Part shown: positions 820 to 62,245 of the stretch, one piece after another
How positions within the stretch are numbered: position 1 is the stretch's first letter
How the letters are laid out: every line of letters starts with the position of its first letter
Assembly: GCA_964415335.1 (NCBI GenBank)
Contig: CAYPZN010000006.1
Coordinates: 11,657-75,656 of the forward strand
Reading direction: 5' to 3'
From: an uncultured Crocinitomix sp.
GTDB taxonomy: Bacteria; Bacteroidota; Bacteroidia; Flavobacteriales_D; Crocinitomicaceae
DNA: 64,000 bases
The notes under the pieces: model-generated
What the model was told of the DNA's origin: nothing
Database searches by the model: none
The model's input: the letters and a program-made list of their open reading frames with translations, nothing else
Position numbers and translations under genes: made by a program

Positions 820-2562
820 TTAAATTTTTATCACTTTTTTGGTTAATTCAATTTCGCTATCATTTAATTTAAAACTTAAGAAATAGATCCCTTCATTTAA
901 ATTTTCAATGTCAACTTTGAATTGATGGTCACCTCTATCTTCAACAATTAGTGAATAAACAATTTGACCTAATGTATTTTTCATTACAAATTGACCGCTT
1001 AGATTATTCTCTCCTATTAATTCAATATTAAAAGCTGAAATGCTAGGGTTTGGATAAACTTGGAAATCAAAATTGTTCTTTACAATAGCATTGTCGTTTT
1101 CCAATTGATTATTATCATCAATAATATCTTGAGCTCTAATTGATGGGCAGATATTAAACGGAATTGATTCTTGTGATATAAGAGTTTGTTCAAAGTTAGA
1201 ACTCACTGCTTCATTTTGAATGATTGATACATTTACTGGAAATGAACTTAAAAAGCTTGAATTGAACGTCCATGGTTCAAAACAATCTGGTCCTACTGTA
1301 GATACAATATCTAAACCATAATTATCATTAATAGTTCTTGGCCCTAAAAACACAAATCCTCTTCTAGACACATTTTCTGTCAAAATTTCTTGTGTAAAAA
1401 GAAACGGATGCTCTCCAACAAAAGTTGATAAAACATTTCCTCCATGAAAACTAAATTCTGGAGCATCAGTTGTCCAAACACTTCCATCAATCATTCCTCC
1501 ACCATTTGCCTTAAAGCTAACAATCCAAGGTCTTGTATTACCTGAACCCGATATATCGTATGATCTGAAATAACCAGCAGCAGTCAAAACTCCTGCCCCT
1601 GAAAACTCCAATTGAAACCCAGCAGCATTAAATGCAGGTGCATTTTCGATAAGTAAGGCATACTCTAATGCAATTGTCGGATTCACACTTGCGTTATTGA
1701 TCATTGTGATAACGGGGTTATGTTGGATACTATTATTCGACATTAAAAAAATGCGATCAGCATTTTCATTATAAGCCAAGGAAACACCATTTTGTCGTAA
1801 ATTTGTTGATTCAAATGAAACGTCTCCGATTACTGAAAGGTCATAATCTAATGAAACCGCCAAAACTCCTTGAACTCCAAATCTCGACACGCCTTGCACA
1901 AACCTACCTAGTTCTGTAGATACCCCTCCTGTTACAAAATATCCATTATTTGTTTCAACAATATCATTTATAGCATCAAGATTCGAGGATACATCTCCAC
2001 GAAACTCTAAATGTTTTACATAGTTTAAATCATAATCAAATTCAGCTAAAATGCTATAATTATCGGACAAGGGTAATTCTAAATTATCTGCAACGAAACC
2101 ACCAACAATATAATGCTCGGTTCTTTCAGAAAAAATAACGTTTGTACCAACAGAAACAGGAAAATCAGATAGTATTGTATTACCTAATAAATTTCCATTC
2201 ATATCATATTTTGCAATAAATAATTTAGAACTGCCATCAATTGTAATATAACCTGTTAAAATAATATCTTGAGCAAGATCAATCGTTACGTCAAGTCCAC
2301 GATCGTCTGTTGATTCATCAATAAAAACTTCCCATAAAATGTTTCCTTCTAAATCCGTTTTAAATAAATGTATGTCAGTATCATTTTCATTGAAAATTGT
2401 TCCAGCACACACATATTCTTGTCTTTCTTCTAAACTTTCTATTGAATAGTGATTCATATCTCTTCCTTGAACATTCAAAGTTGTTTGAAAAAATTGACTG
2501 AATCCATTAAAAGAACTGAAATACAGTAACGTTAACATTAAGTAGATAATTGATTTTTTCAT
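820..2562 (-). CDS. Secreted repeat (beta-propeller-like) protein with a T9SS type-A C-terminal sorting domain
   Basis: 580-aa ORF. Signal peptide MKKSIIYLMLTLLYFSSFNGFSQ. C-terminal tail FQVYPNPSISAFNIEL...NLNEGIYFLSFKLNDSEIELTKKVIKI. Confidence 0.75.
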   Translation of the reverse strand: MKKSIIYLMLTLLYFSSFNGFSQFFQTTLNVQGRDMNHYSIESLEERQEYVCAGTIFNENDTDIHLFKTDLEGNILWEVFIDESTDDRGLDVTIDLAQDIILTGYITIDGSSKLFIAKYDMNGNLLGNTILSDFPVSVGTNVIFSERTEHYIVGGFVADNLELPLSDNYSILAEFDYDLNYVKHLEFRGDVSSNLDAINDIVETNNGYFVTGGVSTELGRFVQGVSRFGVQGVLAVSLDYDLSVIGDVSFESTNLRQNGVSLAYNENADRIFLMSNNSIQHNPVITMINNASVNPTIALEYALLIENAPAFNAAGFQLEFSGAGVLTAAGYFRSYDISGSGNTRPWIVSFKANGGGMIDGSVWTTDAPEFSFHGGNVLSTFVGEHPFLFTQEILTENVSRRGFVFLGPRTINDNYGLDIVSTVGPDCFEPWTFNSSFLSSFPVNVSIIQNEAVSSNFEQTLISQESIPFNICPSIRAQDIIDDNNQLENDNAIVKNNFDFQVYPNPSISAFNIELIGENNLSGQFVMKNTLGQIVYSLIVEDRGDHQFKVDIENLNEGIYFLSFKLNDSEIELTKKVIKI

Positions 2563-15355: not shown

Positions 15356-16339
15356 CTATTTACTATAAATAAGTCGTTCTTGAAATACACTTCCAAATTC
15401 GTCTCTTATCATTAATAAGTATAGGCCTTCGCTTAACTGATAATCTTTTAAGTTTAGTGTGTTTGAATTTTTAATTGCCAAAAGCTGATTTCCTGAAAGG
15501 TCAAATAACTGCATTTCTTCAATCAAACTTTCTGTATCAATGAATACCATCCCTTTAGATGGGTTTGGATAGACTTGAACTTTTGACAGAGAATTCTCAA
15601 ATAAACCTGCCGGATTACTTTCATTGATTACCGCTACTCCGTCTAAATCAAATCCTCCACTTTCAAAACTAGTTGGGTATGGATCATTGATCAAGTTTCC
15701 TTCGCTATCTTGTGTTCCAAATGCCGGATCTATCGATCCAACGACATCAATTATTCGAACGTAATTTATTTGATTTAAATCAATTTCAGTTGAGTCAATA
15801 ATATCTTCTAAGTCAAATGGTGTTCCAAAACCGCCTCTATATTTTCCTGCTAAATTGTGAATAAGGGTTGCGTCCGTATCGGCAAAAGTTCCAGTTTGTG
15901 AATCAACTGGTGTATTAGAAATTGAAGGAATTCTCACAAAACGACTACCATCTGAGCTTACTTCAACATGGGCTAACTCAAGATAACTATCAGAAAAACT
16001 ATTTTCGAAAACAGCAAAATCAAACCCTTCTCCATTTCGAATTGGAAAAGGAAATGTCAATGTAATTGAACCTTGATCTCCTAAACTAACTACTGCAGTT
16101 GGAGAGCCATCTGCAACGCCTATTGCTTCACTTGAATCACCAAATGCCGCTAGACCATCACCTGAGCTTGCTATATCTGCAAATCCTCTTTCAAATGCAA
16201 TAACTTCAGATGCCCAATTAACAATTATACTAGAGTCTTTATCAATTGCAGTTGATCCTGGAAAACCAGCAGGAGGGGCAAATTGAGCCAAAAGTGAAGT
16301 GGATAAAAGAACAGTTATTATTCCTGTGAAAAGTTTCAT
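15356..16339 (-). CDS. Secreted protein with a T9SS type-A C-terminal domain; last gene of the riboswitch-controlled operon
   Basis: 327-aa ORF. Signal peptide MKLFTGIITVLLSTSLLAQ. Core motif FDFAVFENSFSDSYLELAHVEVSSDGSRFVRIP. Tail VQVYPNPSKGMVFID...LSEGLYLLMI. It starts 4 nt after the stop of the upstream gene. Confidence 0.7.
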   Translation of the reverse strand: MKLFTGIITVLLSTSLLAQFAPPAGFPGSTAIDKDSSIIVNWASEVIAFERGFADIASSGDGLAAFGDSSEAIGVADGSPTAVVSLGDQGSITLTFPFPIRNGEGFDFAVFENSFSDSYLELAHVEVSSDGSRFVRIPSISNTPVDSQTGTFADTDATLIHNLAGKYRGGFGTPFDLEDIIDSTEIDLNQINYVRIIDVVGSIDPAFGTQDSEGNLINDPYPTSFESGGFDLDGVAVINESNPAGLFENSLSKVQVYPNPSKGMVFIDTESLIEEMQLFDLSGNQLLAIKNSNTLNLKDYQLSEGLYLLMIRDEFGSVFQERLIYSK

Positions 16340-16343
16340 ATTT

Positions 16344-17402
16344 CTAATTGTTAAAAATTAAATTATTTGCATTCAACCCTCCTTGAAACTCAAACTGAAA
16401 AGTACCAGTTAAGTCGTATACTCTAATTGTAGAGGAATTAACATATCCATTAGCATCAACGCAATAGATTCTATTTTTTACGAGATCAATATGAATTCCA
16501 AAAAAAGTTTCAAAACCACTTCCATCAATCAACCTAGTTGGATCGGATACTTCGGTAATTGTATTTATTCTGAAAACTCCTTTTTCTTCAGTATCATAAT
16601 AATAAAGCCAATCACCGGCAGTGGTTATCGTAGAAATTGGTTTCTCTATTGTCTCTAATACATTTTCAGTAGAAGGATCTATCCGCATCAAAGCAGGACT
16701 AATATCTGAATGGTTTCCACGAGAAAGCAAATAAATTTCTCCTTCTGAATCTAGATCGATTTGAGCCGCATTAATTCGTGTTTCAAACGTTGAAATAACT
16801 GCTTTTGTGTCCATATCAATTACTGATATGGTTGAGTCGTAAACAGGAAAGTTTAATCCTCCAGAATTTACAACGTATAAACGATTATCAATCGTCAATA
16901 AACCATCTGGATTAGCACCAACCTCAACAATGGCTTCAATGGTATATGTATCTAAACTAATTACAGCAACTGTTCCATCAAAATTACAAACGAATGCGTT
17001 TCTTCCATATACTTTTACCCGGCGTGGAGACCGTCCATTTGCACCATTAAAAATAGGGATTTGAGCAACTGTTTTTAGCGTAAATCGCTCAATAATTTCT
17101 ACTTGACTAGAAACATCTACTGCAATGATTATATAATCTTCTCCATCAAGGCTATAGGCTTCAAAATCATTTGCCGTATCACCCAAGCCTCTTCCGTTTT
17201 CTGTTTGAAAAACTTGTTGAAATTCTTCCCCATTTTCATTTGAGTAAAAAGATAAAGTTGCATTGTTTTGCTCGAATAATCCCTCGTTAAGTGCAACAAT
17301 TCCATTTTCAAATTCAGCTGGATTTTCAGGTGGTTCTGGTGGTGTTTTTTTACAGCCTAAAATGACTATAACTACAAATATTATTAGTGTTTTTATTTTC
17401 AT
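16344..17402 (-). CDS. Surface lipoprotein, YncE/BtuG-like beta-propeller
   Basis: 352-aa ORF. Lipobox VILGC. The motif GIVALNEGLFEQNNATLSFYS is followed by repeated propeller-blade-like segments (..YVVNSGG.., ..ISVIDMDT..). Its start overlaps the TonB-receptor stop (ATGA at 17399-17402). The family assignment is from memory of the Bacteroides BtuG/DUF5074-type proteins. Confidence 0.65.
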   Translation of the reverse strand: MKIKTLIIFVVIVILGCKKTPPEPPENPAEFENGIVALNEGLFEQNNATLSFYSNENGEEFQQVFQTENGRGLGDTANDFEAYSLDGEDYIIIAVDVSSQVEIIERFTLKTVAQIPIFNGANGRSPRRVKVYGRNAFVCNFDGTVAVISLDTYTIEAIVEVGANPDGLLTIDNRLYVVNSGGLNFPVYDSTISVIDMDTKAVISTFETRINAAQIDLDSEGEIYLLSRGNHSDISPALMRIDPSTENVLETIEKPISTITTAGDWLYYYDTEEKGVFRINTITEVSDPTRLIDGSGFETFFGIHIDLVKNRIYCVDANGYVNSSTIRVYDLTGTFQFEFQGGLNANNLIFNN

Positions 17403-19393
17403 TTGTCAAAAAAGTATTTTAATCGCAATTGATAATGTCTCCCTGGAACAGGAAAGCTACGAATTGTCTGATAATTATTGTCTAAAATATTGTTTGCATT
17501 TAACGCTATTCTCAATTTTGATTTTTGCCAATTCACCGATTTTGCCAAACCGATATTTATATCTGTATACGAAGGAAGGTAATTCGCGAAAATATTTTCA
17601 TTCAAGGAGTATCTCCCACTACTATATAGGGCATTAATACTAAATTTATATCCACTTCGATCAATACTAATTCCACTGGTATTGGTATAAAATGGAGTAT
17701 AAGGAATTTGATCTCCAAAAGTAATCCCATTAATATCTGTGACATCAATGGAAGAGTTAAATGCTTGATTTGTAGTCAAATTAAATTTTGTTTTACCGCT
17801 TGAAAGCGTCAATAAAGCTCCAATATCAACCCCTCTAATTTCAGTTTCTCCGATATTTTGAATACTCCAATTAAATAAGTCCTTCGTTGGGATTGCAACT
17901 ATTTTGTTTTTAACTTCATTGTAATAGGCATCAACTGTAATTTCGAAAATTGCCTTTTTTCTTTTAACACCATAAGTCACTCCCAAATTAAATAGGTTTG
18001 CGTCTTCTGGTTTTACATCTGAATTTCCAATAAAGTTATAGTAGAGATCGTTAAAAGTCGGTAGTCTAAAGGTATTTTTGTAAAATGCTCTTATTCTAAA
18101 ATTTTGTTTCTTTATTGGAAGGTAAGCAAAGGATAAGAAAGGAGAAAATCTGAAAAAAGTTTGCTGATTGGATGTATTATTTTGAGTGAATTCATCAATG
18201 ACATATTGGGTTGAAAAATTTCCTTGAATTCTCAATTTTTTAATCCAGGTTCCGCCGCCCAAAACAGTATTACTTTGTAATCGAAACGGATTTGCACTTA
18301 CATCATTTCCAACCAATGTATTTTGTAAAAGATCAGATCCTAAAAAGACTTTCTCTGTTAAAAAACGAAATTTTCTGGTCAGAAAAAAACCTCCTCCAAC
18401 GTTTCTTTGATCGTATTCAGAATCAATAAAACCTTGTAAATTAAAGAAATTAGGATCTAAATAACGTGTATAGGTCGATTGATATTTAAAATTGGTATTC
18501 AACACCCATTTTTTGACAGTATAACTATGATTTAAATTGAATCGCCAGTCTGTATTCCACAATTGCTGATCGTTAGAAGGGTTGAATAAAACAGCAGCTC
18601 CAGGCAATTCTTGTGTATTTTCATTAAAAAATAAACTTGCAGTAACTTTATGCTGTTTCGATTGATAACCAACCAATCCTCTTAATCTATAATTAAACAG
18701 GCGTGTATTTTCTCGAATTAGGTCAGGAGAATCAACTGCCTGTTGAGGAATTCTAAAACGAAAAACACCATTTCCAAAACGGGTCAGGCCTTGAAAACCA
18801 ACATAGAATTTTTTTCCTATGTTCGTTTGAATATAACCTCCTTTTTCATAAGCATTAATTGTCGTTGAATTTGAATAGAGTCCTATCCGTAATGCTTTCG
18901 GTTTTTTTGAAAGCACAGAGTTCAATGAAATCGTATTGGCTTGTGTAAACGCAGATGCAGTTGCGTTTTTATCTAGGCTTTGTCCTGAAGAGAAAGCTAC
19001 TGATTCTAATCCAAACAATTCAAAAGAAGAGAGATTAACAATTCCACTTTGCACGTTTGGAATTTGGTTTCCATCCAATTCAACAGTGGTATGCCCAGCT
19101 CCTAAACTTCTGAAAGAAACGGTTTTGATTCCTCCTATTCCACCGTAATCTCGCAATTGAATTCCAGGAACGTATTTTAACGCTTCTCCAACATCAGTTG
19201 CTCCTAATTCATCAATCTTATCTGCGTTAAATTTAAAATGTGGAACCGGAGAAATGATTACTGCTATTCGTAAAACAGTATCTCTTTTGGCAAAAACGGG
19301 AATTTCTTTTAACGTTTTTGTCGAATCTTGCCCAAATAAAAAGGGCATAAAAAGGATACAAAAGCTACTAAATATGAGTAATCTTAATTGCAT
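17399..19393 (-). CDS. TonB-dependent receptor, BtuB-like (cobalamin/corrinoid receptor by context)
   Basis: 664-aa ORF. Signal peptide, a plug region (..ELGATDVGEALKYVPGIQLRDYGGIGGIKTVSFRSLGAGHTTVELDG..), and a C-terminal barrel ending ...RHYQLRLKYFFDK. It lies downstream of a cobalamin riboswitch. Confidence 0.8.
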   Translation of the reverse strand: MQLRLLIFSSFCILFMPFLFGQDSTKTLKEIPVFAKRDTVLRIAVIISPVPHFKFNADKIDELGATDVGEALKYVPGIQLRDYGGIGGIKTVSFRSLGAGHTTVELDGNQIPNVQSGIVNLSSFELFGLESVAFSSGQSLDKNATASAFTQANTISLNSVLSKKPKALRIGLYSNSTTINAYEKGGYIQTNIGKKFYVGFQGLTRFGNGVFRFRIPQQAVDSPDLIRENTRLFNYRLRGLVGYQSKQHKVTASLFFNENTQELPGAAVLFNPSNDQQLWNTDWRFNLNHSYTVKKWVLNTNFKYQSTYTRYLDPNFFNLQGFIDSEYDQRNVGGGFFLTRKFRFLTEKVFLGSDLLQNTLVGNDVSANPFRLQSNTVLGGGTWIKKLRIQGNFSTQYVIDEFTQNNTSNQQTFFRFSPFLSFAYLPIKKQNFRIRAFYKNTFRLPTFNDLYYNFIGNSDVKPEDANLFNLGVTYGVKRKKAIFEITVDAYYNEVKNKIVAIPTKDLFNWSIQNIGETEIRGVDIGALLTLSSGKTKFNLTTNQAFNSSIDVTDINGITFGDQIPYTPFYTNTSGISIDRSGYKFSINALYSSGRYSLNENIFANYLPSYTDINIGLAKSVNWQKSKLRIALNANNILDNNYQTIRSFPVPGRHYQLRLKYFFDK

Positions 19394-19412
19394 CCTTTTT
19401 GTATCTTGTAAT

Positions 19413-20954
19413 TTACTTAATAGTTAATTTTTGTTTCGAAATTTCACCATTAATTGTCGCATAGACAATGTAAACACCTGTATCAAACCTTGATACATCA
19501 ACAGTATTCATTCCTTGTGCAAAAGTTTCGTTTAATAGTACTCTTCCTCCTAAATCTACGATTTTCAAGATTGCTTCTCCTTCAAATTGTACATTAATAA
19601 ATGTACTCGCAGGATTTGGATAAATTGCTAGTTCATTTGCAATTTGTTCATCTATTGATTCAACAGCAGTTGCATTTACACTTAAACTTGGTGGTGTAGC
19701 TGGATTAAATCCAGTATACGAACAACCAAACCAATCACCATCCGACATTTCGGTTCCTATTCCAGTATTTGCATACCATCCACCAACATTCGTTGCACTC
19801 CAAGTTGACCAGAAATTTGGCATTCCTCCTAGGCCTTCAAATCCTAAAGCGTAGATAATATCATTTAAGAACCCTCCTGTTAAGTCAATGTCTAATCCGT
19901 AAGGTTCATAATCGTTCAATGCAATCAAAACATCTTCTGCGCTAATTGTTTCTTCATCAAAATTATATCCAAATGCAAACGACTCTCCAGGTAACCATTC
20001 ATTAAAATCAATTACAACTACTGCCCGATTTGTTCCTGTGCCAAATAAAAAATCGAGAGTACTAATTACTAAATCAGCAGAATCAATTGCAGGAATTGGA
20101 TAAAATGGTCTTCTTGGTGGCCATTCATCATAAGAAACACCAAACCAATCACCATCATTAATTGTCATTCCTAATCCTGTGTTCATTGTCCAATCTGACA
20201 AATTTGTTCCACTCCATGTCCCCCAAAAACCTGGCATTCCACCAATTCCTTCAAGCATATTGTATTCAATATCATTTAAGAACATATCTGCATCTACGTT
20301 TAAGTTTACATCTGCAGCATCAATATCTGCTATCATAGTTCCTGCATCTGTAGTTCCATCAAATCGATAACCCCATGCGTAAGTTGCTATTTCACCAAAA
20401 CTAGATGTAACAAAATCTGTAACAAAAACGGCTGTATTAGCACCTGTCCCCACCCAAAACTGGATGTCAGCTTCAGAAAAGCGACTTGATTCATAAGCAG
20501 GAATAGGTTCTCCAGGAATTAAAGGAGGCATAAAATCAGTGTAAGAAAATCCAAACCAATCTCCGTTATTTAAAACTTCTGGCAGTCCTGAATTTGCTAT
20601 CCAATCTGTATCAGCAGTTCTACTCCATGTGCCCCAAAAATTAGGCATCCCTCCGATTCCTTCATGTGCATTATAAGTAATGTCTGATAGAAAGCCCATA
20701 GCCGTTACAAAATCCAGCTGATCTTCATCTGCTGCCACTGCGGCAAGCATATCTCCTCCAGTTACAGTTGCCGAAGCATCAAAAAGAAATCCCCACGCAT
20801 AAGCAGAATCTGGTGTTCCATCAATAAAATCGATAACCATAACTGCTGTATCCGGCCCTGATCCTACATAATAAATTAAATCGTTTTGTGTGAATTGGGC
20901 TTTTCCCAATAATGAAATGAGTGCGAACACTCCTGTGAGTAAAATTTTTCTCAT
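19413..20954 (-). CDS. Secreted protein with three tandem ~115-aa repeats plus a T9SS type-A C-terminal domain; first gene after the cobalamin riboswitch
   Basis: 513-aa ORF. Signal peptide MRKILLTGVFALISLLGKAQ. The repeats fall at about residues 27-140, 165-277 and 301-416. They share G(S/T)G.(D/N).AV.V.DF...(Y/F)A(W/F)G(F/Y).FD...FL(S/N)DI.Y...EG(I/L)GGMP.FW(G/S)TWS...W..N(S/T)G......GDWFG.SY. Tail LAIYPNPASTFINVQF...FDTGVYIVYATI. Confidence 0.75.
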   Translation of the reverse strand: MRKILLTGVFALISLLGKAQFTQNDLIYYVGSGPDTAVMVIDFIDGTPDSAYAWGFLFDASATVTGGDMLAAVAADEDQLDFVTAMGFLSDITYNAHEGIGGMPNFWGTWSRTADTDWIANSGLPEVLNNGDWFGFSYTDFMPPLIPGEPIPAYESSRFSEADIQFWVGTGANTAVFVTDFVTSSFGEIATYAWGYRFDGTTDAGTMIADIDAADVNLNVDADMFLNDIEYNMLEGIGGMPGFWGTWSGTNLSDWTMNTGLGMTINDGDWFGVSYDEWPPRRPFYPIPAIDSADLVISTLDFLFGTGTNRAVVVIDFNEWLPGESFAFGYNFDEETISAEDVLIALNDYEPYGLDIDLTGGFLNDIIYALGFEGLGGMPNFWSTWSATNVGGWYANTGIGTEMSDGDWFGCSYTGFNPATPPSLSVNATAVESIDEQIANELAIYPNPASTFINVQFEGEAILKIVDLGGRVLLNETFAQGMNTVDVSRFDTGVYIVYATINGEISKQKLTIK

Positions 20955-21080
20955 CCTTTTAAAATTTTGCCTTTAATTTTTTGGCGTGTTAATAATAAAA
21001 AGGAATAGCAACGAAGTATAAGGGTGTCAAAAGCACCTCCTAAACTTTGCTTTTATCCCGAAAGCTTGTTTTATTAAGAA

Positions 21081-21236
21081 TTGGCAGGTCTTCTGACTTA
21101 CTCCTTAAGATTTAAACCCTTCCCGTCTAGATAACAGACAGTGGTAATGTTTAAACGTTTTGAAGCTTACAGCTGCGGGAACAGTTCAAGATTTTCACTT
21201 GATTCCCATTTTAATTCCGACAATGTCAGAAACCAA
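21081..21236 (-). promoter_or_regulatory. Cobalamin (B12) riboswitch
   Basis: The minus-strand RNA reads UUGGUUUCUGAC...GGGAAUCAAGUGAAAAUCUUGAACUGUUCCCGCAGCUGUAAGC...CCACUG...CGGGAAGG...AAGUCAGAAGACCUGCCAA. It contains the B12 box AGUCAGAAGACCUGCC (21083-21098) and the conserved GGGAA / GUGAAAAUC / CCCGCAGCUGUAA / CCACUG / GGGAAG core elements. P1 is formed by UUGG..UCUGAC pairing with GUCAGA..CCAA. It lies 126 nt upstream of the first operon ATG. Confidence 0.85.
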
Positions 21237-21245
21237 AACTTGGCG

Positions 21246-21253
21246 CAAAGATA
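21246..21253 (-). promoter_or_regulatory. Bacteroidota-type -7 promoter box (TAnnTTTG) for the riboswitch operon
   Basis: The minus strand reads TATCTTTG, about 10 nt upstream of the riboswitch P1 stem, with a TTG-containing stretch about 20-25 nt further upstream. Confidence 0.5.
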
Positions 21254-21420
21254 AGTCATTTTTTTGTTTAGAGCAAAATTGCTTGAACGATTGAGCTGTA
21301 TATGCAATTAACATGTTGGTTTACTAATTTAATCATGCTTCGAGAACATTAGTATTACACATTAATTAAAGCACTTTTTTCAATTTGATTTTATATGATG
21401 AAAAACGGAATGGCGTTAAT

Positions 21421-31300: not shown

Positions 31301-31304
31301 AAAA

Positions 31305-31690
31305 TACAGTAAATCTATAAGCCGGATTCTGTTTTTCAATCAAATGATTAAAAATCTTGTCATTTATCTCGTTCTAAAATCACTTTTAGAATCAATCCAT
31401 CTACCCTCCAAGATTGGCCGAGTAAGCCTCAAACCTTGGTATACATGATGTTTCAACTCATGAGGTTTACCATGCCTTTTAAATCACTTTAAAAGCGGTG
31501 AGCTCTTACCTCACCTTTTCACCTTTTCCTAATAATTCATATCCATAAGGAAATGTATTGTTAGGTAGTCTATTTTCTGTGGCACTTTCTGTTTCTATTT
31601 TATCAATAGAACCTTCCAGTTAGGAAGCATGTTACTCTGTGTTGCCCAGACTTTCCTCTATTAAAAAATAGCGACAAGACGATTTACATT
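31305..31690 (-). ncRNA. rnpB: RNase P RNA (bacterial type A)
   Basis: The minus strand contains P4 5' GAGGAAAGUCUGGGC (revcomp of 31646-31660 region), GUGCCACAGAAA, GGUGAAAAGGUGAGGUAAGAGCUCACCGC, GGUAAACCUCAUGAG, GGGUAGAUGGAUUG, and P4 3' ACAGAAUCCGGCUUAU. P1 is GUAAAUC (31681-31687) paired with GAUUUAC (31309-31315). A TATCTTTA near-consensus -7 box sits just upstream (31695-31702). The ends are approximate to within ±10 nt. Confidence 0.9.
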
Positions 31691-38653: not shown

Positions 38654-39733
38654 CTATTTAATTTCAATTGATAGTCCAATTGAATGTACTCCATTAAATA
38701 ATCTTGTTTGACGGTATGCATACTGAATTCCAAGTAAACTTTTGCTTTTTCCAGCAATTGCATCTACAGAAACACCAGCAGTTAATCCGCTTAAGGCAGT
38801 AACTCTTGATCCAAAATCGAATTCATCAGAGAATAACCCTTGTTCATAAACATAACCAGCCATCAAATTAAATTTTGCTTTTTCTAACTCCATTCCATAG
38901 TTCAATCCTATTCTGAACTGATCATTTGAGAAAGAGTTTGCAGAGAAAGCAAGCGCTAAGATTAATTTATTTGTTTCAGTGAAGTTAAAATCATAAGAAC
39001 CTCCAATTGACAATAAAGATGGTAATTCAAATGTAGCAGAACGTTGCTCTAATGTAGCTACATCTCCTGAATTAGGATACTGTACTTGAAAACTTAATCC
39101 ATCTCCTTGGAAATTGATTGTAGGACCAACGTTTTTAAGAGCAATACCAAATTTTACTTGATCTTCTTCTCCTGTAACGTATCTAATTCCTGCATCAACA
39201 GCTACTCCTGTACCTCTGATATCAGCAATTGATTCAGAAATTACTTTGAAGTTAATTCCACCATAAATAGAGTTTGAAAATTCTCTTGCATATCCAATAT
39301 TAAAGTTTGAATATGTTGGAGAAAATGTTCCATTTCCACCTTCTGGTAAATTTTCTGTTGTAATATCAATTTCACCAAAGTTCATTGCCATTACTGTTAC
39401 AGAAATAACACCACTTTCGGAAACTCTTTGGGCTAAACCAGCAGAGTTAATGTTAATCCCTGATCCACCTAACCAGTTAGTACGGTCAAAGCGAACCTGC
39501 GTTTTATCCGTAAAAGCTAATCCAGCAATGTTCGTATAAACTGCATCTAGACCAGTTGCGCTAGAAATTCCAGCATCCGCCCAAGCAGCACTTCTTGCCC
39601 AAGGGTTAATTAATAATTCTGTAGCTCCAGCGGAACCAACTCTATCACCATTTCCAGCGAAAGAAGTTGTCCCTAGGCTCAATGCCATACTAGCTAAAAC
39701 TGTTTTTCTAATTAATTTATTTAATCTCATCAT
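38654..39733 (-). CDS. PorV/PorQ-family-like outer-membrane beta-barrel protein
   Basis: 359-aa ORF. Signal peptide, then GSAGATELLINPWARSAAWADAGISSATGLDAVYTNIAGLAF. This resembles the PorV/PorQ N-terminal signature (..fL.i...aRaaamGgAgvA......NPAgla). The barrel ends ...HSIGLSIEIK. It starts 27 nt after the upstream gene's stop. Confidence 0.65.
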   Translation of the reverse strand: MMRLNKLIRKTVLASMALSLGTTSFAGNGDRVGSAGATELLINPWARSAAWADAGISSATGLDAVYTNIAGLAFTDKTQVRFDRTNWLGGSGININSAGLAQRVSESGVISVTVMAMNFGEIDITTENLPEGGNGTFSPTYSNFNIGYAREFSNSIYGGINFKVISESIADIRGTGVAVDAGIRYVTGEEDQVKFGIALKNVGPTINFQGDGLSFQVQYPNSGDVATLEQRSATFELPSLLSIGGSYDFNFTETNKLILALAFSANSFSNDQFRIGLNYGMELEKAKFNLMAGYVYEQGLFSDEFDFGSRVTALSGLTAGVSVDAIAGKSKSLLGIQYAYRQTRLFNGVHSIGLSIEIK

Positions 39734-39760
39734 TGAGTGAATTTCAAATTAATACTAATC

Positions 39761-42700
39761 CTATAGGTTCTGTAAATCAGGTTGTCTTAACACACCAAAC
39801 CATTTGAGAATTCTTTCTTCTTTGGTTCCGTCAGGAAGGTCAACTTCAACGTGAATAATATAAACACCTCCAGCGATAGGAATACCTCTATGATTTTGAA
39901 GATCCCAATCTAATGATGTTAATGGATCATCTTTTTCAAATGTTCTTACTAATGCACCCTGCATATTAAAGATAGTAACTGTACATCTTTCAGGAAGATT
40001 TGTAATCTTAACTCTGTTGTCCAATCTACTTGTCTCGTATTCAGAATAAGCATAGTAAGGATTAGGTACAACATTAATGTTATCTAATACCGATACTAAA
40101 CGATCTGTATCTGCTGTTCTTGATGGCTCATCAAAACTGAACTCATATAACGGATAACCTTCGTTTGAATTATTTACTTCACGTTCTTCATAAGGCTTGT
40201 TAATACGAGCACTAATCTTAACATCAGTATCTAACAATGGTGAGTTTTCCTCTAACATTGGTTCCATTACCCAGAAACAAGTTTCCCAAGCAGATCTGAA
40301 GTTTGTGTTACGAGTACCAGGGCTAGCTACATCATCTACCTCGAACATTTCTCTTAACCAAGCTCCATTATCATAAGGTCTTTCACCTTCATCAGTTCCA
40401 AAAACATATACATAATGCATTCCTCCAAACAATGGCACAAACGAGTTGTCAGCAAAACTTGATGTTGGATTCCAGATCATATCGTCTCCATTATCTCCAG
40501 TTAACCAAGAGTTTTCTGAGAACATCATATTTAATCTTTCTCCTGTATTTACATCTATTGCATATCCAGGGAACCATCCCATACCTGTTGCGTTAACTAG
40601 GTCTCCTTCGGCAGCGTTATAACCTTGTTCACCTGCGCTCAATCCGTTTTTATCAACAGATAAGTCACCTCTAGGCTCAAGAATAACGTCTCCGTGTTCA
40701 GTTTGATCTAAGATATCGTTAATCTCGATTACAGGGCATCTTGACCATAGTGATTTGTCATTTGTAATGATAATATCCACATCATGTAAGAGTGAAAATC
40801 TTGATTGACTTTGTGCCGTTCCTGCAGAAGTAAACCAAGTTTGATTTGATTCATACCAAGGTGTAGCTGTATTTTCTCCTGGGAATCCGTAAGGACTTCC
40901 ATAAGGACCTTTTCCAACTAATGAGAATGGTGCAATTCCTCCGTTCAATAATTGCTCATAAAGTGAGTTCTCTTGATCAAGTGGGAAATCATCATAATGA
41001 CATGGTTGTCTAAACCACATATCCGCAACACAACCTGGATTAGGTGTAGTAGGATGATCTGCCCCCTCACTAGAGTTTCCTGAACGAATCCAGTTTGTAG
41101 GATAAAATTGATCATCATCTTCTACAAAAGTTAACCATCTTTTTCCAGGATCAGCAAATGTCATAGAAGCTCCAATTGGTTCTGTAAATGTGCCAACACC
41201 AAAACCTTCATATTGTTGCTGCCTTACAGTAATCGAAAGTCCCCATTCAAGAATCAATTGTTCTCTAACAATAGAGATAGAAGTATCACTCCAAACAGTA
41301 TCAATAGCTCCTTCAAATGTTCTTTCTAACCACCATCTTGAATCATCTAAGTCACTCTCGCTATTGTCAAATCCAAGTCTATAGTTACCACCTTGAAGAT
41401 TTAACGGGTCAACTACTTTAACTTCAACAGGACCAGAACCACTTTGGTAAGTAGGACTATCATCTTTTCCTGTTGATAAAATTGTATTTACAGTTTCATC
41501 TGTTAATTCTAAGAAAACTCCTCCATTTCCTTCACCTTCAATTTGTGTAATTTCCGGTTGGAATCCATAAGTTGTAGTAAATACTCGTCCATCAGCTTCA
41601 GGAGATGGATCATGTGGAATACCAACAACAGCCTCAATTCCTCCATTAATAGAAGCACGAGATCTTAAGTATGGTCTTCTTTGTCCATCAAGAGCAGTAG
41701 GATCATTAGGATCAAACGTTTTGAAGTTATTATGTGCATAAGAAACTGCGATATAATAATACTTTCTATGATTTACTAAAGTTCTATCTCCGTTTGCAAA
41801 AAGGTCTTCAGTAACAACGAAAGATCTTCTGATTCCTTCATCTAAACCAAATGCACCTGCTGGTTCTACAACAACTTCAGGAATAGAAATATTAAGTTCT
41901 TCATCAAATGTGTAGTTTACTAATTTCCCAACTCCATTTTGAATATCAGTTTGAGCAATTAATCTTGCTTTAGATAAATCTCCAATATCAGATATAGATG
42001 CATTTTCATCTACCATTTGGAAAATTTGGAATCCTTCAAATCTGAATAAATCATCATAAACAATTCCCATTTCTAATAGTTCATCCGGCGTAATAATGTT
42101 AATTCTGTCTCTTTCTGTATAATTTTCAAGTCCAATTGGTCCTGGAGGATCAGATAAGAATAATACAAGTTCGTTTTCTAATTCTTGAATTGTCATAACT
42201 GGCGCCAATGGTGGCTCAACTAATTCGAAACAGTTATCAAAAAGAGCTTGTGCTTTTGTATCTGCAGTTTTTAGTGCTCTAATAGGTGCTTCAATATCTG
42301 ACTCTGTACTTCTTGCTACTACAACACCAACAGTAATATTATTTACTGCTCCAGGTCTTAAGACAAAAGGACCAGCTGATTGAAGGAATCGTCTATCTCC
42401 AGAAGGATTCATTTCAGTTAATTCAGACCAAGGATCTGTTGAAGGAAGTGCATTTGGAAAAGTACCCCATCCTAATGGATCAGAATCATCAGGGAACATA
42501 AATCTAGTTGGAACACCTGAACCGGTTGTATTACCATTACCACCAAATTGCATTGGCAATCCATCTAACCATATTCCTCTTAAATAACTATAAAAATCTG
42601 CAGCTGTATTTGGATCATTATATGGTCCAGGTCCAATTCCATGGAAAACAAATCGTTGCATTCCATAACGTTCATTATCTACTACACCATCTCCATAACC

Positions 42701-43924
42701 AATTCCATTTAATGCTTCTCCATCTGCAATACCTTCTGCATTATCAATACCATCATTATCTTGATAAGGCCCTTCAAAGAAATCGACACCTACTGCTGGA
42801 GGATTAGCTCCATAACCTGGTTGCCCTGCTTGTCCAGCATCAGTTAAATCTCCATTATAACAAAATCCTAATCCACGCCCAACATCACAACCGACAAGGT
42901 CATTAGCTGCAAATCCTACATCTGGATCCACCCATTGACCAAAGAATGTATTTTGAAGTGTTTGTGTACCTCTATTAATTAACTCATAATTATAGAATGT
43001 CATGTCATTTACCTCATCATCAGTAGCAAAAGTAAATGCTTGTGCTCTTACTTCCATTCCAATTGGATCACCACCAGTTTCAGTGTGAATATTTCCACGA
43101 TCATTAAAAACCCACCAATGCGTTTCATCTCCAAATAAAGTAACGCGGCGATCATTTCTACAATCTACTACATCTTCAATATCATACCAAGGGTAATCAC
43201 CGTCAGCAATTGGATCATAAACACCATTTCCAGTTTCTCCTGGTAATGCGTTATCGAAGAATGGTGCTAAATAAAAATCTTCACCTATAGACTCATCACC
43301 ATGTGCTGGCCATTCTTGAATTCTTCTAAAAACATCTTCAGATGGTCTGATAATGTCTCCACAATCTGCTGGATCAGTTACACCGTTTTCACAGTTCCAC
43401 CAAGCAATAAATTGAAGTACTTCACTTTTTCTGATTGTAAAGAATTGATCGTAAAAACTACACGTTGCAGGTAAAATTTCAGCCGCACCACTGTTTCTCA
43501 CAAGATTTAATTCTGCAGATTGTGGAATAAACGGATCATAATTTCCTGTTCCTGGGATTAGACTGTTTAGAGGGCCAGCCCAGAAATCGTTTCCTTGTCT
43601 AAATAGATGTGCAGCCAATTTTAACTGACCGTTAACATCTTCACCACCCATCCAAAGTGCTCCTGAGAATAGAACGTGATTACCACTTCCTTTAGGGAAC
43701 TCATAAGACGCTGCTGTATTTGCACGATCTTGCCACAACGACCCACCTGTTTCGACTAAGGCTCTAATATTGTTAAACTCTACGAATAATCTTTCATTTG
43801 AAGGAGCACAATCAGCCGCTCTCGACTCAATTGTTTCCGACACTGGATGAAGATTTTCGTAGTAGTAACCGAACATTGTGTTCGCTACTCCTAACATTAA
43901 AATATTCAATAATAACTTTTTCAT
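39761..43924 (-). CDS. Very large (1387 aa) secreted protein of unknown function with a FlgD-Ig/PorU-like C-terminal domain
   Basis: Signal peptide MKKLLLNILMLGVANTMFG. I recognise no catalytic motif. The C-terminal ~100 aa read VVPNPYYAYSEYE...VKITNLPERCTVTIFNMQGALVRTF...LDWDLQNHRGIPIAGGVYIIHVEV...KWFGVLR. Confidence 0.7.
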   Translation of the reverse strand: MKKLLLNILMLGVANTMFGYYYENLHPVSETIESRAADCAPSNERLFVEFNNIRALVETGGSLWQDRANTAASYEFPKGSGNHVLFSGALWMGGEDVNGQLKLAAHLFRQGNDFWAGPLNSLIPGTGNYDPFIPQSAELNLVRNSGAAEILPATCSFYDQFFTIRKSEVLQFIAWWNCENGVTDPADCGDIIRPSEDVFRRIQEWPAHGDESIGEDFYLAPFFDNALPGETGNGVYDPIADGDYPWYDIEDVVDCRNDRRVTLFGDETHWWVFNDRGNIHTETGGDPIGMEVRAQAFTFATDDEVNDMTFYNYELINRGTQTLQNTFFGQWVDPDVGFAANDLVGCDVGRGLGFCYNGDLTDAGQAGQPGYGANPPAVGVDFFEGPYQDNDGIDNAEGIADGEALNGIGYGDGVVDNERYGMQRFVFHGIGPGPYNDPNTAADFYSYLRGIWLDGLPMQFGGNGNTTGSGVPTRFMFPDDSDPLGWGTFPNALPSTDPWSELTEMNPSGDRRFLQSAGPFVLRPGAVNNITVGVVVARSTESDIEAPIRALKTADTKAQALFDNCFELVEPPLAPVMTIQELENELVLFLSDPPGPIGLENYTERDRINIITPDELLEMGIVYDDLFRFEGFQIFQMVDENASISDIGDLSKARLIAQTDIQNGVGKLVNYTFDEELNISIPEVVVEPAGAFGLDEGIRRSFVVTEDLFANGDRTLVNHRKYYYIAVSYAHNNFKTFDPNDPTALDGQRRPYLRSRASINGGIEAVVGIPHDPSPEADGRVFTTTYGFQPEITQIEGEGNGGVFLELTDETVNTILSTGKDDSPTYQSGSGPVEVKVVDPLNLQGGNYRLGFDNSESDLDDSRWWLERTFEGAIDTVWSDTSISIVREQLILEWGLSITVRQQQYEGFGVGTFTEPIGASMTFADPGKRWLTFVEDDDQFYPTNWIRSGNSSEGADHPTTPNPGCVADMWFRQPCHYDDFPLDQENSLYEQLLNGGIAPFSLVGKGPYGSPYGFPGENTATPWYESNQTWFTSAGTAQSQSRFSLLHDVDIIITNDKSLWSRCPVIEINDILDQTEHGDVILEPRGDLSVDKNGLSAGEQGYNAAEGDLVNATGMGWFPGYAIDVNTGERLNMMFSENSWLTGDNGDDMIWNPTSSFADNSFVPLFGGMHYVYVFGTDEGERPYDNGAWLREMFEVDDVASPGTRNTNFRSAWETCFWVMEPMLEENSPLLDTDVKISARINKPYEEREVNNSNEGYPLYEFSFDEPSRTADTDRLVSVLDNINVVPNPYYAYSEYETSRLDNRVKITNLPERCTVTIFNMQGALVRTFEKDDPLTSLDWDLQNHRGIPIAGGVYIIHVEVDLPDGTKEERILKWFGVLRQPDLQNL

Positions 43925-43955
43925 ACTTTCTTTTTTAACTTCTAAGTTTTAAGGA

Positions 43956-46900
43956 TTAAAAGTCGAATTTTACACCTAATCGAATTGTTCTTGGAATACC
44001 ATAGTTAAATGGATTTTGAACTTTCAACGTATAATAATCTCTGAATGATTGCTCATCCAACTGGTTTTGAATTGAAGCTTGGAATTGAGATGCTGCTAAA
44101 TATCCATCATCCCCAGGGTTACCAGTAGCCCTGTATACATTTAACACGTTAATGATATTAAATAGGTTGGTTGCACGAACATATACATTCAAGTAAGCAG
44201 CTTTCTTTTTGTTTTCATCATCTCCAAATTGAAGTGTGAAATTTCTATCCAATTGAAGATCTACTCTATATTGCCAAGGTTTTCTTGATCCATTCAACGA
44301 TCCATCTAAAGGAGCAGAACCTCCAGCTAATAAAGCTTCTCCTGCTGCTTGTGTAAATCCAGAATAAGGTGAACCTGAACCTAATTGAGTTACAACATTC
44401 AATCCTGTATTTTCAAGAACTCCAAATCGACCTATAGATGGCCCGTTATAATCTTTTCCTCCTCCATAACGATAATCAAGTACTACGTTGATAACGTGTC
44501 TTTGATCAAAAGAGAATGGGAAAATTGTTCTTAAGTTTGGTTCTCCTGAGTTAACTAAACTTGCAGCAGATGTTGCATCTGTTCCAGTTCCTTCAGCAAA
44601 TTGCAATGTATAAGAAGCTGTCATTCTAATGTTACCTGTTCTTCTTAAATCATAAGAAACTGTTAACCCTTTTACTGTTCCGAAATCTCTATTTCCAAAA
44701 GAACGATACGTATTAGGGAAAGCAGAGAACACGTTAATTAACTGAACTTGATCTCTTTGTTCTTTATAAAAAGCAGAGATTTTTAAAGAAGATGTTTTTG
44801 TTAAAACCTGTTGGAAACCTAATTCATAATCAATTGTTTTCTCTGGTCTTAAGTTAGGGTTGTTAATTACAACGTTCCTATCTTCAATAAACTGGTATTG
44901 AATAGGATCAAATCTATTTCCTGTTGTTGGTCTCTTTGTTAAGATATCGTAATGAGCGAAGAAAGAAGCTTCATCAGAAATCGGGAAAGAGAAAGCAACT
45001 CTTGGAGATACATTTATCTGAGGTTTATAGTCTTCAAAAGACTCAGCCGTTGGTGTATCTAATGTAGGGTCTAATAACCAAGGAGCAATTCCTGAACTTC
45101 CTTCAAGAATACTTGGATCTGCGATTTCAACACCATCAGCATTAAACCAAGTTTCTCCATTTCTATAACCATTAATTGCAGTTGGATTATCAACATCATT
45201 TACATATACAATAAAATCATCTCCAATATTTTCTGGGTGAGTAATTGGAGCACCATTGTCAAATTCTGTTGCCTCTCTAGCTGTTCTAGCTTCATATAAC
45301 AAGAAAGGATCTTTTAACACTGGTTGATTCGCATCAAAGATATCAACACGTACACCTACGTTAAAGATAATATCATCAAAGGCAAATTTATCAATTAAAT
45401 AACCCGCTGTATAGATTGGTTGGAAAGCTCCAATTGTTCTAGAGAAGTTTTGATCTTCATTAAAATCATTGAAATAAGCATTAATATCTGTATTTCCTCT
45501 AATTTTATTTCCAGTATGATCATAGCCAAACCATGTAAACAACGTGTTTCCAGAGTTTAATAACTCATCAGCACTAAACTGATCTAATGTAAAGAAGTCT
45601 GGATCTAATGCATCAATATCAATAAAATCTGTTCCATCTGGATCTAATCCTAACTTTCTTCTTAAGTTGTAATCAAAGAAGAATTGTGCATCTCCGTTTT
45701 CTTGCCCACCAAATTCACCTTTAGAAGCGTTCAAACGATCAAAAGTTACTCTTGGGAAGGTACCGAAGAAATCAAATGTTGCCTCTTCTCTGTCTAACTC
45801 AGTAATATGGTTATTTGTTAACTGTCTAGCAATTGTCCAAATTCCTAATGGATTCCCTCCAAATGATCTATCCCATCTTTGCTCATATTCGAAACCTAAA
45901 GATATTGCGTGATCATTTAAGTTAACTGTACCTGAACCTGTAATTCTGAATTGATCAGCTTGACTGAATCCGTAGAAGTTAAATGGAGTTCCTAAGTTAT
46001 TCCAAATACCATATACACTTTGAGGAGCATCTCCATTTCTTAATCCATTTCCTTGCTCAATTTGAAATAAGTTTTCGAAGTTTCCTACTGGCTGACCAGC
46101 AAAGATATCGAAGTACTGACTTGTAATTGCTGCAAAAGCTTCGTTTGTTGCAGAAGGAGTAAACTCAACTAAAGTATCTCTAAATCCATTGTGAATTAAA
46201 CTATCTCCTGCGTCATTGAATTCATAAGTTATTTCTCTAAACGTTTCAAATGTACCAACATGTCCATAGTTAAATATGCGATCTTCATGTTTTGCATCCC
46301 ATGTTCTTCCGTGGGTTTGAGAATAATCCACCTGAAGTGAATAGAAAGCACTTTTAATTTTAGAAGTAGAACCTTCTTGATTGTTATTAAATCGTTGTGT
46401 AAAACGTCCATAAACTCTCCAATCATAGTTTCTTGATTCACCAAAATTATCAAAGTTCAATAATGAATTATTATAATTATAGTTTCTTCCGTTATTATAT
46501 GCAAACGATCCTCCAAATGTTAAATTCACATTTGGCCCAGCATTAACATCAATTTTACCTGCTGCTGAAACTGATCTATTTCTTGCATTTTGTCTCCAAG
46601 CCACTTGTTCAAAATCAGACAATGCTGGATCCTCATTATCTCGTAAAAAATCTGTATTAAAGAAAGCTCCTGTCCCAAGTCCTGTAGGTCGAAGTGGGTT
46701 CGCCAAAAGCTCATCTCGCACCTCTCTTTTTACTCGGTAAGCACCACCATTTGCTAGTGGTCTTCCATCTAATACATCTTGATAATTAACAGAAAGGAAG
46801 AAACCTAAAATAGGTTTTGATGTCTTATTCCCTAATGAATCTTTTTTTAACAATAACGGCCCAGAGATTAATCCCTCTGTAAGGTTATACGCATATTGAT

Positions 46901-55347: not shown

Positions 55348-55348
55348 T

Positions 55349-57664: not shown

Positions 57665-57742
57665 TCTAGATACTAGACTTACTTTAAATAAATTTGTATT
57701 TAAGCTATTTACGACAATTATTAAATTGTAGAATTTATAAAA

Positions 57743-61361: not shown

Positions 61362-61367
61362 GTCGTT

Positions 61368-62132: not shown

Positions 62133-62245
62133 CCGTCTATAATTTATTTCCAATGGTCAGATGGAACTCGCAAATCACACCCGTTCCGTTATCTATCAAA
62201 CGTATTGTCATACTCATTTTATTTTAATTCTTGAAAAGTGCTTAG

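Follow-up and report, generated by a model that had tools for sequence, protein, structure and literature searches.

Locus organization

The stretch of DNA analysed here, called the window below, comprises 64,000 nucleotides (nt) of contig CAYPZN010000006.1 from an uncultured Crocinitomix sp., and contains a block of four minus-strand genes situated directly downstream of a cobalamin riboswitch. The genes are separated by 19, -4 and 4 nt, exactly as given in the first-pass annotation, a reading of the letters and their open reading frames (ORFs) made without database searches. They encode a triple-repeat protein (protein 1), a BtuB-type transporter (protein 2), a BtuG-type lipoprotein (protein 3) and a protein with a BtuH-like domain (protein 4), the first and last of which end in a C-terminal domain (CTD) of the type IX secretion system (T9SS). 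The block is probably a corrinoid (B12) scavenging operon of a Crocinitomicaceae-like flavobacterium, in which a riboswitch precedes a BtuB/BtuG importer and T9SS-exported accessory binders. The closest named relatives are found in Crocinitomix and in other metagenome-assembled genomes (MAGs) of the Crocinitomicaceae. The exact sequence of protein 4 is also present on a Joint Genome Institute (JGI) metagenome contig (sample 3300000976), and a Logan assembly contains the identical protein 4 sequence with the same gene order as the window. The features of the locus, with protein residues in amino acids (aa), are as follows.

21246-21276, minus strand: candidate Bacteroidota-type promoter (TTG, 20-nt spacer, -7 box TATCTTTG), by direct reading
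21066-21252, minus strand: cobalamin riboswitch aptamer, by RF00174 and our own covariance model R1
20991-21059, minus strand: candidate expression platform (long imperfect hairpin and UUUUUAUUAUU), by minimum free energy and centroid folds
19413-20954, minus strand: protein 1 gene, 513 aa
20484-20897, minus strand: protein 1 repeat 1, aa 20-157
20076-20483, minus strand: protein 1 repeat 2, aa 158-293
19656-20075, minus strand: protein 1 repeat 3, aa 294-433
19419-19625, minus strand: protein 1 type A T9SS CTD, aa 444-512
17399-19393, minus strand: protein 2 gene, 664 aa, Bacteroidota-type BtuB TonB-dependent transporter, by its domains and 8blw_A
16344-17402, minus strand: protein 3 gene, 352 aa, BtuG-type propeller lipoprotein (Cys17), by DUF5074 and 8blw_B
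15356-16339, minus strand: protein 4 gene, 327 aa
15605-16285, minus strand: protein 4 BtuH-like jelly-roll domain, aa ~19-245
15368-15574, minus strand: protein 4 type A T9SS CTD, aa 256-324

Riboswitch, promoter and leader

The riboswitch recognized in the first-pass annotation is confirmed by Rfam: RF00174 matches the minus strand at 21066-21252 over the full model (positions 1-189 of 189) with 109.7 bits, against a gathering score of 31.5, and an E-value of 1.4e-26. Our own covariance model R1 assigns it 170 bits. Direct reading places the B12 box AGTCAGAAGACCTGCC at 21098 to 21083 on the minus strand and the -7 box TATCTTTG at 21246-21253, both where they had been reported. The B12 box, aligned as AGUCAGAAGACCUGCC (21083-21098), is invariant across seven aligned homologues, and a conserved CTTTG marks the aptamer's 5' edge in seven aligned riboswitch loci.

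The candidate -7 box, read from 21253 to 21246 on the minus strand, has a TTG 20 nt upstream (21274-21276), and we take it to fit the TAnnTTTG consensus. A scan for sigma-70 promoters was uninformative, with 25 sites found and 25.1 expected.

Between the aptamer and the start codon, the leader contains a long imperfect hairpin (21002-21059) followed by the tract UUUUUAUUAUU (20991-21001). The leader folds with z = -2.4, and in the alternative, centroid fold the 5' arm of the hairpin pairs with the B12-box strand (21086-21097). The base of the stem, GGGAUAAAAGC...UAUUCC, and the U-tract recur in the leaders of related loci L003, L005, L006 and L009, where the interior of the stem varies. Given this recurrence of hairpin and U-tract in four leaders with differing interiors, ligand-induced transcription termination is most likely the mechanism of control. 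Transcription would start at the Bacteroidota-type promoter and enter the riboswitch. With an intracellular cobamide bound, the B12-box strand would be kept in the aptamer, and the hairpin and U-tract could form and most likely terminate transcription. Under scarcity of B12, the B12-box strand would instead pair with the 5' arm of the hairpin, and the four genes would be transcribed.

Control of translation instead, or an incidental hairpin, appears rather unlikely. Such a reading would fit the imperfect hairpin, which a simple terminator scan did not flag, a result that speaks against termination, and it would fit the position of the start codon, ~37 nt past the U-tract and shortly after the purine tract AAAAGG. 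However, the conserved closing pairs around a variable interior in L003, L005, L006 and L009, together with the predicted alternative pairing of the hairpin with the B12-box strand, favor termination.

BtuB-type transporter and BtuG-type lipoprotein

The first-pass annotation had proposed that the 664-aa TonB-dependent receptor is BtuB-like. Pfam identifies Plug and TonB_dep_Rec_b-barrel domains in protein 2, and among solved structures its closest match is B. thetaiotaomicron BtuB1 (8blw_A), with an E-value of 2.4e-78 over residues 46-657. All ten of its Protein Data Bank (PDB) matches are BtuB-type chains, eight of them so named and two (8bmx_C and 8p97_A) generically labelled. The top-ranked NCBIfam family is TonB-B12, far under the equivalog cut-off, and the scores for the proteobacterial BtuB equivalogs TIGR01779 and NF007926 stay below their cut-offs (74.2 vs. 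599.7 bits and 52.8 vs. 836 bits, respectively). By these matches, protein 2 belongs with the BtuB proteins of Bacteroidota and not with the proteobacterial equivalog.

Protein 3 matches DUF5074 (PF16819) with an E-value of 1.3e-14 and 54.5 bits, against a gathering score of 27.2. Its match to 8blw_B (BtuG1) covers residues 23-351 with an E-value of 1.2e-41, and further BtuG structures (8p97_B, 8bmx_D, 8okv_B and others) are matched with E-values of 1e-8 to 1e-11. The protein has a lipobox, ILGC with Cys17, in MKIKTLIIFVVIVILGC, and carries the motif NEGLFEQNNATLSFY; it shares NEG..N..LS.Y with BtuG1 and with BtuG2 (L113). A lipobox-like pattern is present in most protein 3 homologues of related operons. 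Protein 3 is thus best described as a BtuG-type seven-bladed propeller and a predicted surface lipoprotein, which bears out the propeller lipoprotein with this motif proposed earlier.

Given that proteins 2 and 3 match the two partners of the BtuB1/BtuG1 complex, the siderophore or heme families that the first-pass annotation had named as the alternative for receptor and propeller are excluded. The two proteins would form an outer-membrane importer, as in the solved BtuB-BtuG complexes of Bacteroides.

T9SS tails of proteins 1 and 4

The tails of proteins 1 and 4 were assigned with Pfam and TIGRFAM models. In protein 1, the Por_Secre_tail occupies residues 444-512 (PF18962, E = 2.5e-10) and TIGR04183, type A, scores 41.6 bits, and in protein 4 it occupies residues 256-319 and TIGR04183, type A, scores 38.7 bits; the TIGR04183 cut-off is 23 for both, and PF18962 likewise exceeds its cut-off in both proteins. 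By profiles as well as by models, both tails match solved T9SS CTDs such as 8glk_D, 8gl8_D and 8qb1, the models with template modeling (TM) scores of 0.75-0.83. Sec signal peptides are visible in both sequences, and that of protein 4 is of the signal peptidase I type (…SLLAQ/FAPP) and contains no cysteine, hence no lipoprotein anchoring signal. The description of protein 1 as a triple-repeat T9SS protein and of protein 4 as a second T9SS-tailed protein therefore stands, as does the claim that the extra partners carry type A sorting domains rather than lipoboxes.

We infer from these signals that proteins 1 and 4 are exported via the T9SS. They would cross the inner membrane by Sec and the outer membrane by the T9SS, directed by their type A CTDs, and would then be tethered to the cell surface or released. 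The broader claim that corrinoid capture at this cell surface depends on T9SS-delivered proteins holds for the accessory layer and not for the whole, since BtuG here is still a lipoprotein. The window contains seven Por_Secre_tail proteins, namely proteins 1 and 4 and five further ones, which indicates that T9SS cargo is abundant in this organism.

Protein 1: DUF4430-like repeats

Protein 1 consists of three repeats of ~138 aa, which are 40-49% identical and share 44 invariant columns, and its AlphaFold2 model from the family alignment has a predicted local distance difference test (pLDDT) score of 89.7. An exhaustive HMMER search, for which the profile covered the repeat alone, yielded 1165 clusters at 50% identity, with 1-7 repeats per protein and library E-values of 1e-38 to 1e-64 to distant repeats. 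In a diverse sample of 43 family members, T9SS tails are present in 38 and a Pfam DUF4430 match in eight. In all relatives examined, DUF4430 (27-58 bits against a cut-off of 23.8) falls within a repeat and runs collinear with it. In P0319, for instance, DUF4430 covers residues 89-162 nearly full-length with 57 bits (cut-off 23.8), within a full-length repeat at 42-179; the match in P0293 reaches 57.6 bits, and P0274, P0311, P0324 and P0335 match too. The repeats of the window type and the distant ones align with 99.7% probability in hhalign (E = 1e-26), and a W-x-Y/W...N-G...G-D-x-hydrophobic signature is common to the protein 1 repeats and DUF4430.

Given the collinear DUF4430 matches in the distant repeats and the 99.7% repeat alignment, the protein 1 repeat is classified, through intermediate sequences, as a divergent DUF4430 module with an extension at its N-terminus. 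In B12 binders of the transcobalamin type, DUF4430 forms the C-terminal beta-domain (PMC4350170). The family (PF14478), which includes the beta-domains of transcobalamin, intrinsic factor and haptocorrin and the bacterial structure 3U7Z, is matched inside homologous repeats of distant relatives. In comparison with DUF4430, the repeats of the window add an N-terminal extension of ~45 residues, an insertion in the W...N segment and a proline-rich linker, and they form three tandem copies on a T9SS substrate, without a direct DUF4430 match. Repeats of the protein 1 type also occur in very large multidomain proteins with cadherin and immunoglobulin (Ig) domains.

Protein 4: a BtuH-like domain

The AlphaFold2 model of protein 4 from its family alignment has a pLDDT of 82. 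Foldseek matches it to jelly-roll and Ig modules, with carbohydrate-enzyme modules of these kinds on top, to T9SS CTDs, and to 8blw_B (E = 1.6e-3, probability 0.99), which is a BtuG-BtuH fusion chain (PMC13616437). The gene of BT1956 (BtuH2) was recovered from human-gut contigs via a published primer sequence, the BtuH family was collected, and the profiles were compared. Between the protein 4 family (alignment A2) and the BtuH family (alignment A8), hhalign reports a probability of 89% and an E-value of 2.3e-6 over 75 columns, pairing residues 42-116 with residues 320-402 of BtuH2. After trimming to the domains the score is 47.3. The reversed profile reaches 20.1, the best of 60 shuffles 28.8, and unrelated profiles no more than 18.

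The aligned segment reads VSLG..G.I...F...I.N..G.DF.V..N.F. Residues N399 and F401 of BtuH2, which contact the nucleotide loop and the metal site (PMC13616437; PMC8941943), fall on N113 and F115 of protein 4, both invariant in its family. Q333 aligns with D55 and F334 with I56, and E406, H476, Y510, D522, S582 and E584 lie outside the reliable alignment. Two further correspondences were considered and set aside: the likeness of S582/E584 in 'SFEDL' to 'GFDLD' of protein 4 was dropped, as the BT1956 sequence puts both residues in 'EVSTEV', and an equivalence of E406 with E121 is not claimed, as a permissive hhalign alignment puts an insertion there.

These values point to protein 4 as a distant relative of the BtuH B12-binding domain. 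Because the likeness is not reliable over the whole domain, we call it BtuH-like and not a member of the BtuH family. In common with the BtuH domains of BT1956 (BtuH2, PDB 7BIZ), BT1488 and the BtuG-BtuH fusion BT1490 (in 8blw_B), it has profile similarity, a fold of the jelly-roll or carbohydrate-binding module class, and a gene beside those of BtuB and BtuG. In contrast with BtuH, the domain is shorter by ~65 residues, confident alignment is confined to its N-terminal third to half, PKD spacers are absent, and a T9SS CTD lies behind the domain where BtuH has a lipobox in front.

The first-pass annotation had suggested comparison with "DUF4465/BtuH" as if this were one family. That pairing does not hold, since DUF4465 corresponds to BtuJ and BtuH has a different fold (PMC13616437). 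For DUF4465 (PF14717), no Pfam match was obtained at E <= 10 for proteins 1 and 4 or for the 39 and 46 members of their families.

Related loci

One genome per species was scanned, which yielded more than 524 loci with protein 4 relatives, and the best 80 were examined with a locus covariance model built from seven Rfam-confirmed riboswitches. Since likeness to protein 4, its CTD included, was the basis on which the 80 loci were picked, the figures below show the linkage of this family to B12 operons and not its frequency among them. A cobalamin riboswitch was found in 58 of the 80 loci. In each of them it precedes the genes on their own strand, and the median distance to the first gene is 112 nt. 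The 58 riboswitch-led operons contain the following.

T9SS-tailed protein 4 homologue: 57 of 58
BtuB: 42 of 58
BtuG, mostly with lipobox: 42 of 58
At least two T9SS-tailed proteins: 49 of 58
First slot DUF4465 (BtuJ) with CTD: 25 of 58, with Pfam E-values of 1e-28 to 1e-54 on five examples
First slot protein 1-type repeats with CTD: 17 of 58
First slot propeller-like with CTD: 12 of 58

The layout of a riboswitch, T9SS cargo and BtuB/BtuG thus recurs across many environmental Bacteroidota of several orders. It had been asked whether the same four-gene order follows B12 riboswitches in related Flavobacteriia; the riboswitch, BtuB, BtuG and the protein 4-CTD do recur, but the first slot is often taken by a DUF4465-CTD protein. 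This applies to the nearest members of the Crocinitomicaceae, namely Putridiphycobacter, Fluviicola and several MAGs, where the order is DUF4465-CTD, BtuB, BtuG, protein 4-CTD, and by this comparison protein 1 occupies the BtuJ slot. Proteins with DUF4465 retain B12 experimentally, including one from Fluviicola taffensis (PMC13398666), which is by taxonomy a member of the Crocinitomicaceae.

We considered whether the unlabelled T9SS-tailed proteins of the first slot are divergent relatives of protein 1. This was rejected by the repeat hidden Markov model (HMM), which gives no match to DUF4465-CTD proteins, and the class of ~330 aa was identified by Pfam as DUF4465, with all five of the proteins tested having both DUF4465 and a T9SS tail. 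A published survey of DUF4465 describes more than 70% of the proteins as lipoproteins and the remainder as having "periplasmic targeting signals" (PMC13398666); judging from these tails, part of that remainder may be T9SS cargo instead of periplasmic. A further family of ~420-450 aa, T9SS-tailed and propeller-like in its N-terminal region, fills the first slot in 12 operons (e.g., L025:7655-8962 and L075:6199-7545). It has no Pfam or PDB match beyond the tail and is another candidate corrinoid binder.

Other arrangements bring the same modules together. In L070:8736-9957 and L082:8779-9969, the riboswitch directly precedes a T9SS gene of the protein 4 type, with neither BtuB nor BtuG detected in the vicinity. 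Protein 1-type repeats, a protein 4-type domain and a CTD are fused in L044:973-3342, L058:634-3876 and L077:7078-9894; these are single polypeptides of 789-1080 aa from Bacteroidales MAGs, and the A6 consensus is alike. P0287 combines a DUF5074 BtuG-type propeller with two protein 1-type repeats and a CTD, and L052:7655-8947 a propeller of the same type with a CTD.

Interpretation and alternatives

The three DUF4430-like, i.e., transcobalamin-beta-domain-like, modules of protein 1 and the single BtuH-like module of protein 4 would together form an outer capture layer, which would bind corrinoids and pass them to BtuG and BtuB. Both the binding and the hand-off to BtuG are inferred here from homology and gene linkage.

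Several results weigh against this interpretation. At E <= 10, protein 1 and 38 close homologues have no direct DUF4430 match, and neither the cargo of protein 1 nor that of protein 4 matches any Pfam family in scans of all family members. The solved DUF4430 structure 3u7z_A was twice the top PDB match of the protein 1 repeat, with non-significant E-values of 0.39 and 0.062, and sequence and profile searches of the cargo of proteins 1 and 4 against the PDB otherwise matched T9SS CTDs only; with the full-length model of protein 1, the Foldseek matches shown are limited to CTDs and Ig-like noise. The likeness between protein 4 and BtuH spans only ~50-75 columns of a domain of ~225 aa, their global alignment is poor (probability 13%), and BLASTP between the two gives an E-value of 0.19. 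BtuH2 (7BIZ) is absent among the 50 Foldseek matches shown for protein 4, and no BtuH match came from its HMM-to-PDB searches. Of the loci examined, ~11 have ample upstream sequence and no riboswitch, and the selection of all 80 by protein 4 similarity yields no frequencies for B12 operons generally. In the 64-kb window, no T9SS machinery gene was identified save a weak, sub-threshold PorV-like ORF.

On another reading, proteins 1 and 4 would be T9SS cargo with no role in corrinoid handling, for instance adhesins, jelly-rolls that bind glycans, or structural surface proteins, and would merely share a transcript with BtuB and BtuG. The lack of Pfam coverage of both cargo domains, the carbohydrate-enzyme and Ig modules that head the Foldseek matches of protein 4, the wealth of unrelated T9SS cargo in the window, and the occurrence of protein 1-type repeats in huge cadherin/Ig proteins are all compatible with this. 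Yet a protein 4-type gene lies behind the riboswitch in 57 of 58 operons from several orders, and it is the sole classified gene directly behind the riboswitch of L070 and L082. The two domains are also fused to each other and to BtuG-type propellers, both have profile-level homology to B12-binding families, and the slot of protein 1 is filled in sister operons by DUF4465, an experimental B12 binder. Given this evidence, we consider cargo foreign to corrinoids very unlikely.

Proteins 1 and 4 could also bind corrinoids mainly as a store, or as a competitive sequestration layer that keeps B12 from neighbours, and not as an obligatory relay to BtuG-BtuB. A preprint describes B. thetaiotaomicron BtuJ1 as a reservoir of the vitamin outside the cell (bioRxiv 10.1101/2025.07.01.662609), three tandem modules in protein 1 would raise capacity and not the rate of transfer, and the riboswitch-led protein 4-type genes of L070 and L082 have no adjacent BtuB or BtuG. 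However, in 42 of 58 operons the T9SS proteins share a transcript with BtuB, and in 42 of 58 with BtuG, and the covalent fusions to BtuG-type propellers (P0287 and L052) suggest closeness to the transporter; a role mainly as a store is considered unlikely.

Within the preferred reading, of a capture layer that feeds BtuG and BtuB, it is conceivable, although rather unlikely, that proteins 1 and 4 are released after removal of their CTDs by the T9SS as soluble "corrinophores", protein 1 being a trivalent transcobalamin-like carrier that would pick up cobamides at a distance from the cell and return them to BtuG-BtuB. This would resemble the hemophore/TonB-receptor systems HasA-HasR and HmuY-HmuR of Porphyromonas, in which an extracellular or surface tetrapyrrole binder feeds a co-operonic TonB receptor. 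The ligand here would be a corrinoid and not heme, and the binding folds and the export route differ.

Comparison with Bacteroides Btu systems

In the Btu relay of Bacteroides, BtuJ and BtuH pass the vitamin to BtuG, and BtuG to BtuB (PMC13616437). Btu operons 1-3 of B. thetaiotaomicron, which combine BtuB-BtuG with BtuJ, BtuH and BtuK lipoproteins, share with the operon of the window its riboswitch control, a BtuB TonB-dependent transporter, a BtuG lipoprotein and extra extracellular binders in the same operon, putative in the window and one of them BtuH-like here. In contrast, the candidate accessory binders here have a Sec signal and a type A T9SS CTD in place of a lipobox and a lipoprotein export signal, the first-slot binder has triple DUF4430-like repeats in place of DUF4465 (BtuJ), the BtuH-like module is shortened, and btuFCD and BtuK genes are present neither in the operon nor in the scanned ORFs of the window. 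Proteins 1 and 4 would be the functional equals of the BtuJ/BtuH lipoproteins of gut Bacteroides, delivered by another export route. Full-text searches of the literature library used returned no paper linking the T9SS with Btu accessory proteins or describing T9SS-sorted corrinoid binders.

Flanking genes and other features of the window

The neighbours of the operon are unrelated genes, which Pfam assigns to a DUF5686 protein, two-component regulators, queuosine, IspD and isocitrate dehydrogenase. The absence of a btuFCD-type gene from the window, noted in the first-pass annotation, holds among the 34 ORFs scanned with Pfam, where no FecCD, ABC or periplasmic-binding gene was found (the ORFs outside the scan are all below ~215 aa). 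Genes for the inner-membrane step must lie in another part of the genome.

The bacterial RNase P RNA, class A, is located at 31302-31690 on the minus strand (239 bits). It is also found near the B12 operon of a Crocinitomicaceae MAG (L003, 1441-1805), which suggests partial synteny.

Other T9SS-tailed proteins of the window lie apart from the operon. A 580-aa ORF at 820-2562 (minus strand), whose sole Pfam match is the Por_Secre_tail, lies ~20 nt downstream of a DUF805b RNA motif (RF02914, 2582-2614, minus strand, 40.8 bits vs. 35.6), for which it is an unusual partner. At 50763-60229 (plus strand), four of five successive ORFs have T9SS tails: a Kelch-repeat protein of 409 aa, a CotH kinase and lamin-tail protein of 872 aa, and two FG-GAP-repeat proteins of 771 and 828 aa. 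A PcrB-family gene (51992-52732) sits between the Kelch and CotH genes. At 38654-47684 (minus strand), a 1242-aa CarboxypepD_reg-Plug (SusC-like) receptor comes first, then a 1387-aa ORF without any match in Pfam, and last a 359-aa ORF with weak, sub-threshold PorV/DUF5723 similarity.

Genes for vitamin B1 biosynthesis are found at 60249-62153 (minus strand), where the thiazole synthase gene thiG adjoins a radical-SAM/BATS (ThiH-like) gene. Rfam reports no thiamine pyrophosphate (TPP) riboswitch in the window near thiG.

Significance

Work on B12 capture in Bacteroidota rests almost wholly on gut Bacteroides, where every accessory binder is lipoprotein-anchored. The results suggest that T9SS-bearing Bacteroidota deliver the same kinds of binding modules as T9SS cargo, namely DUF4465 (BtuJ), BtuH-like domains, BtuG-like propellers and a transcobalamin-like repeat that had no annotation before. 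Relatives with this layout include marine and freshwater Flavobacteriales, Chitinophagales, Cytophagales and many Bacteroidales.

If this is true, two big unannotated families, that of protein 4 (more than 524 loci) and that of the protein 1 repeat (1165 clusters), would gain a functional annotation, and the ~30% of DUF4465 proteins read as "periplasmic" (PMC13398666) might be T9SS cargo. The passage of B12 between surface binders would become testable in organisms with another anchoring chemistry. Should proteins 1 and 4 indeed be released as soluble carriers, protein 1 would constitute a bacterial, hemophore-style secreted B12 shuttle, and the transcobalamin beta-domain fold would be used for extracellular B12 transport in both bacteria and animals. 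With T9SS cargo of this kind, both the acquisition of a vitamin and the cross-feeding of B12 among aquatic microbial communities would be tied to the T9SS. The finding is of interest to the fields of B12 ecology and of the T9SS.

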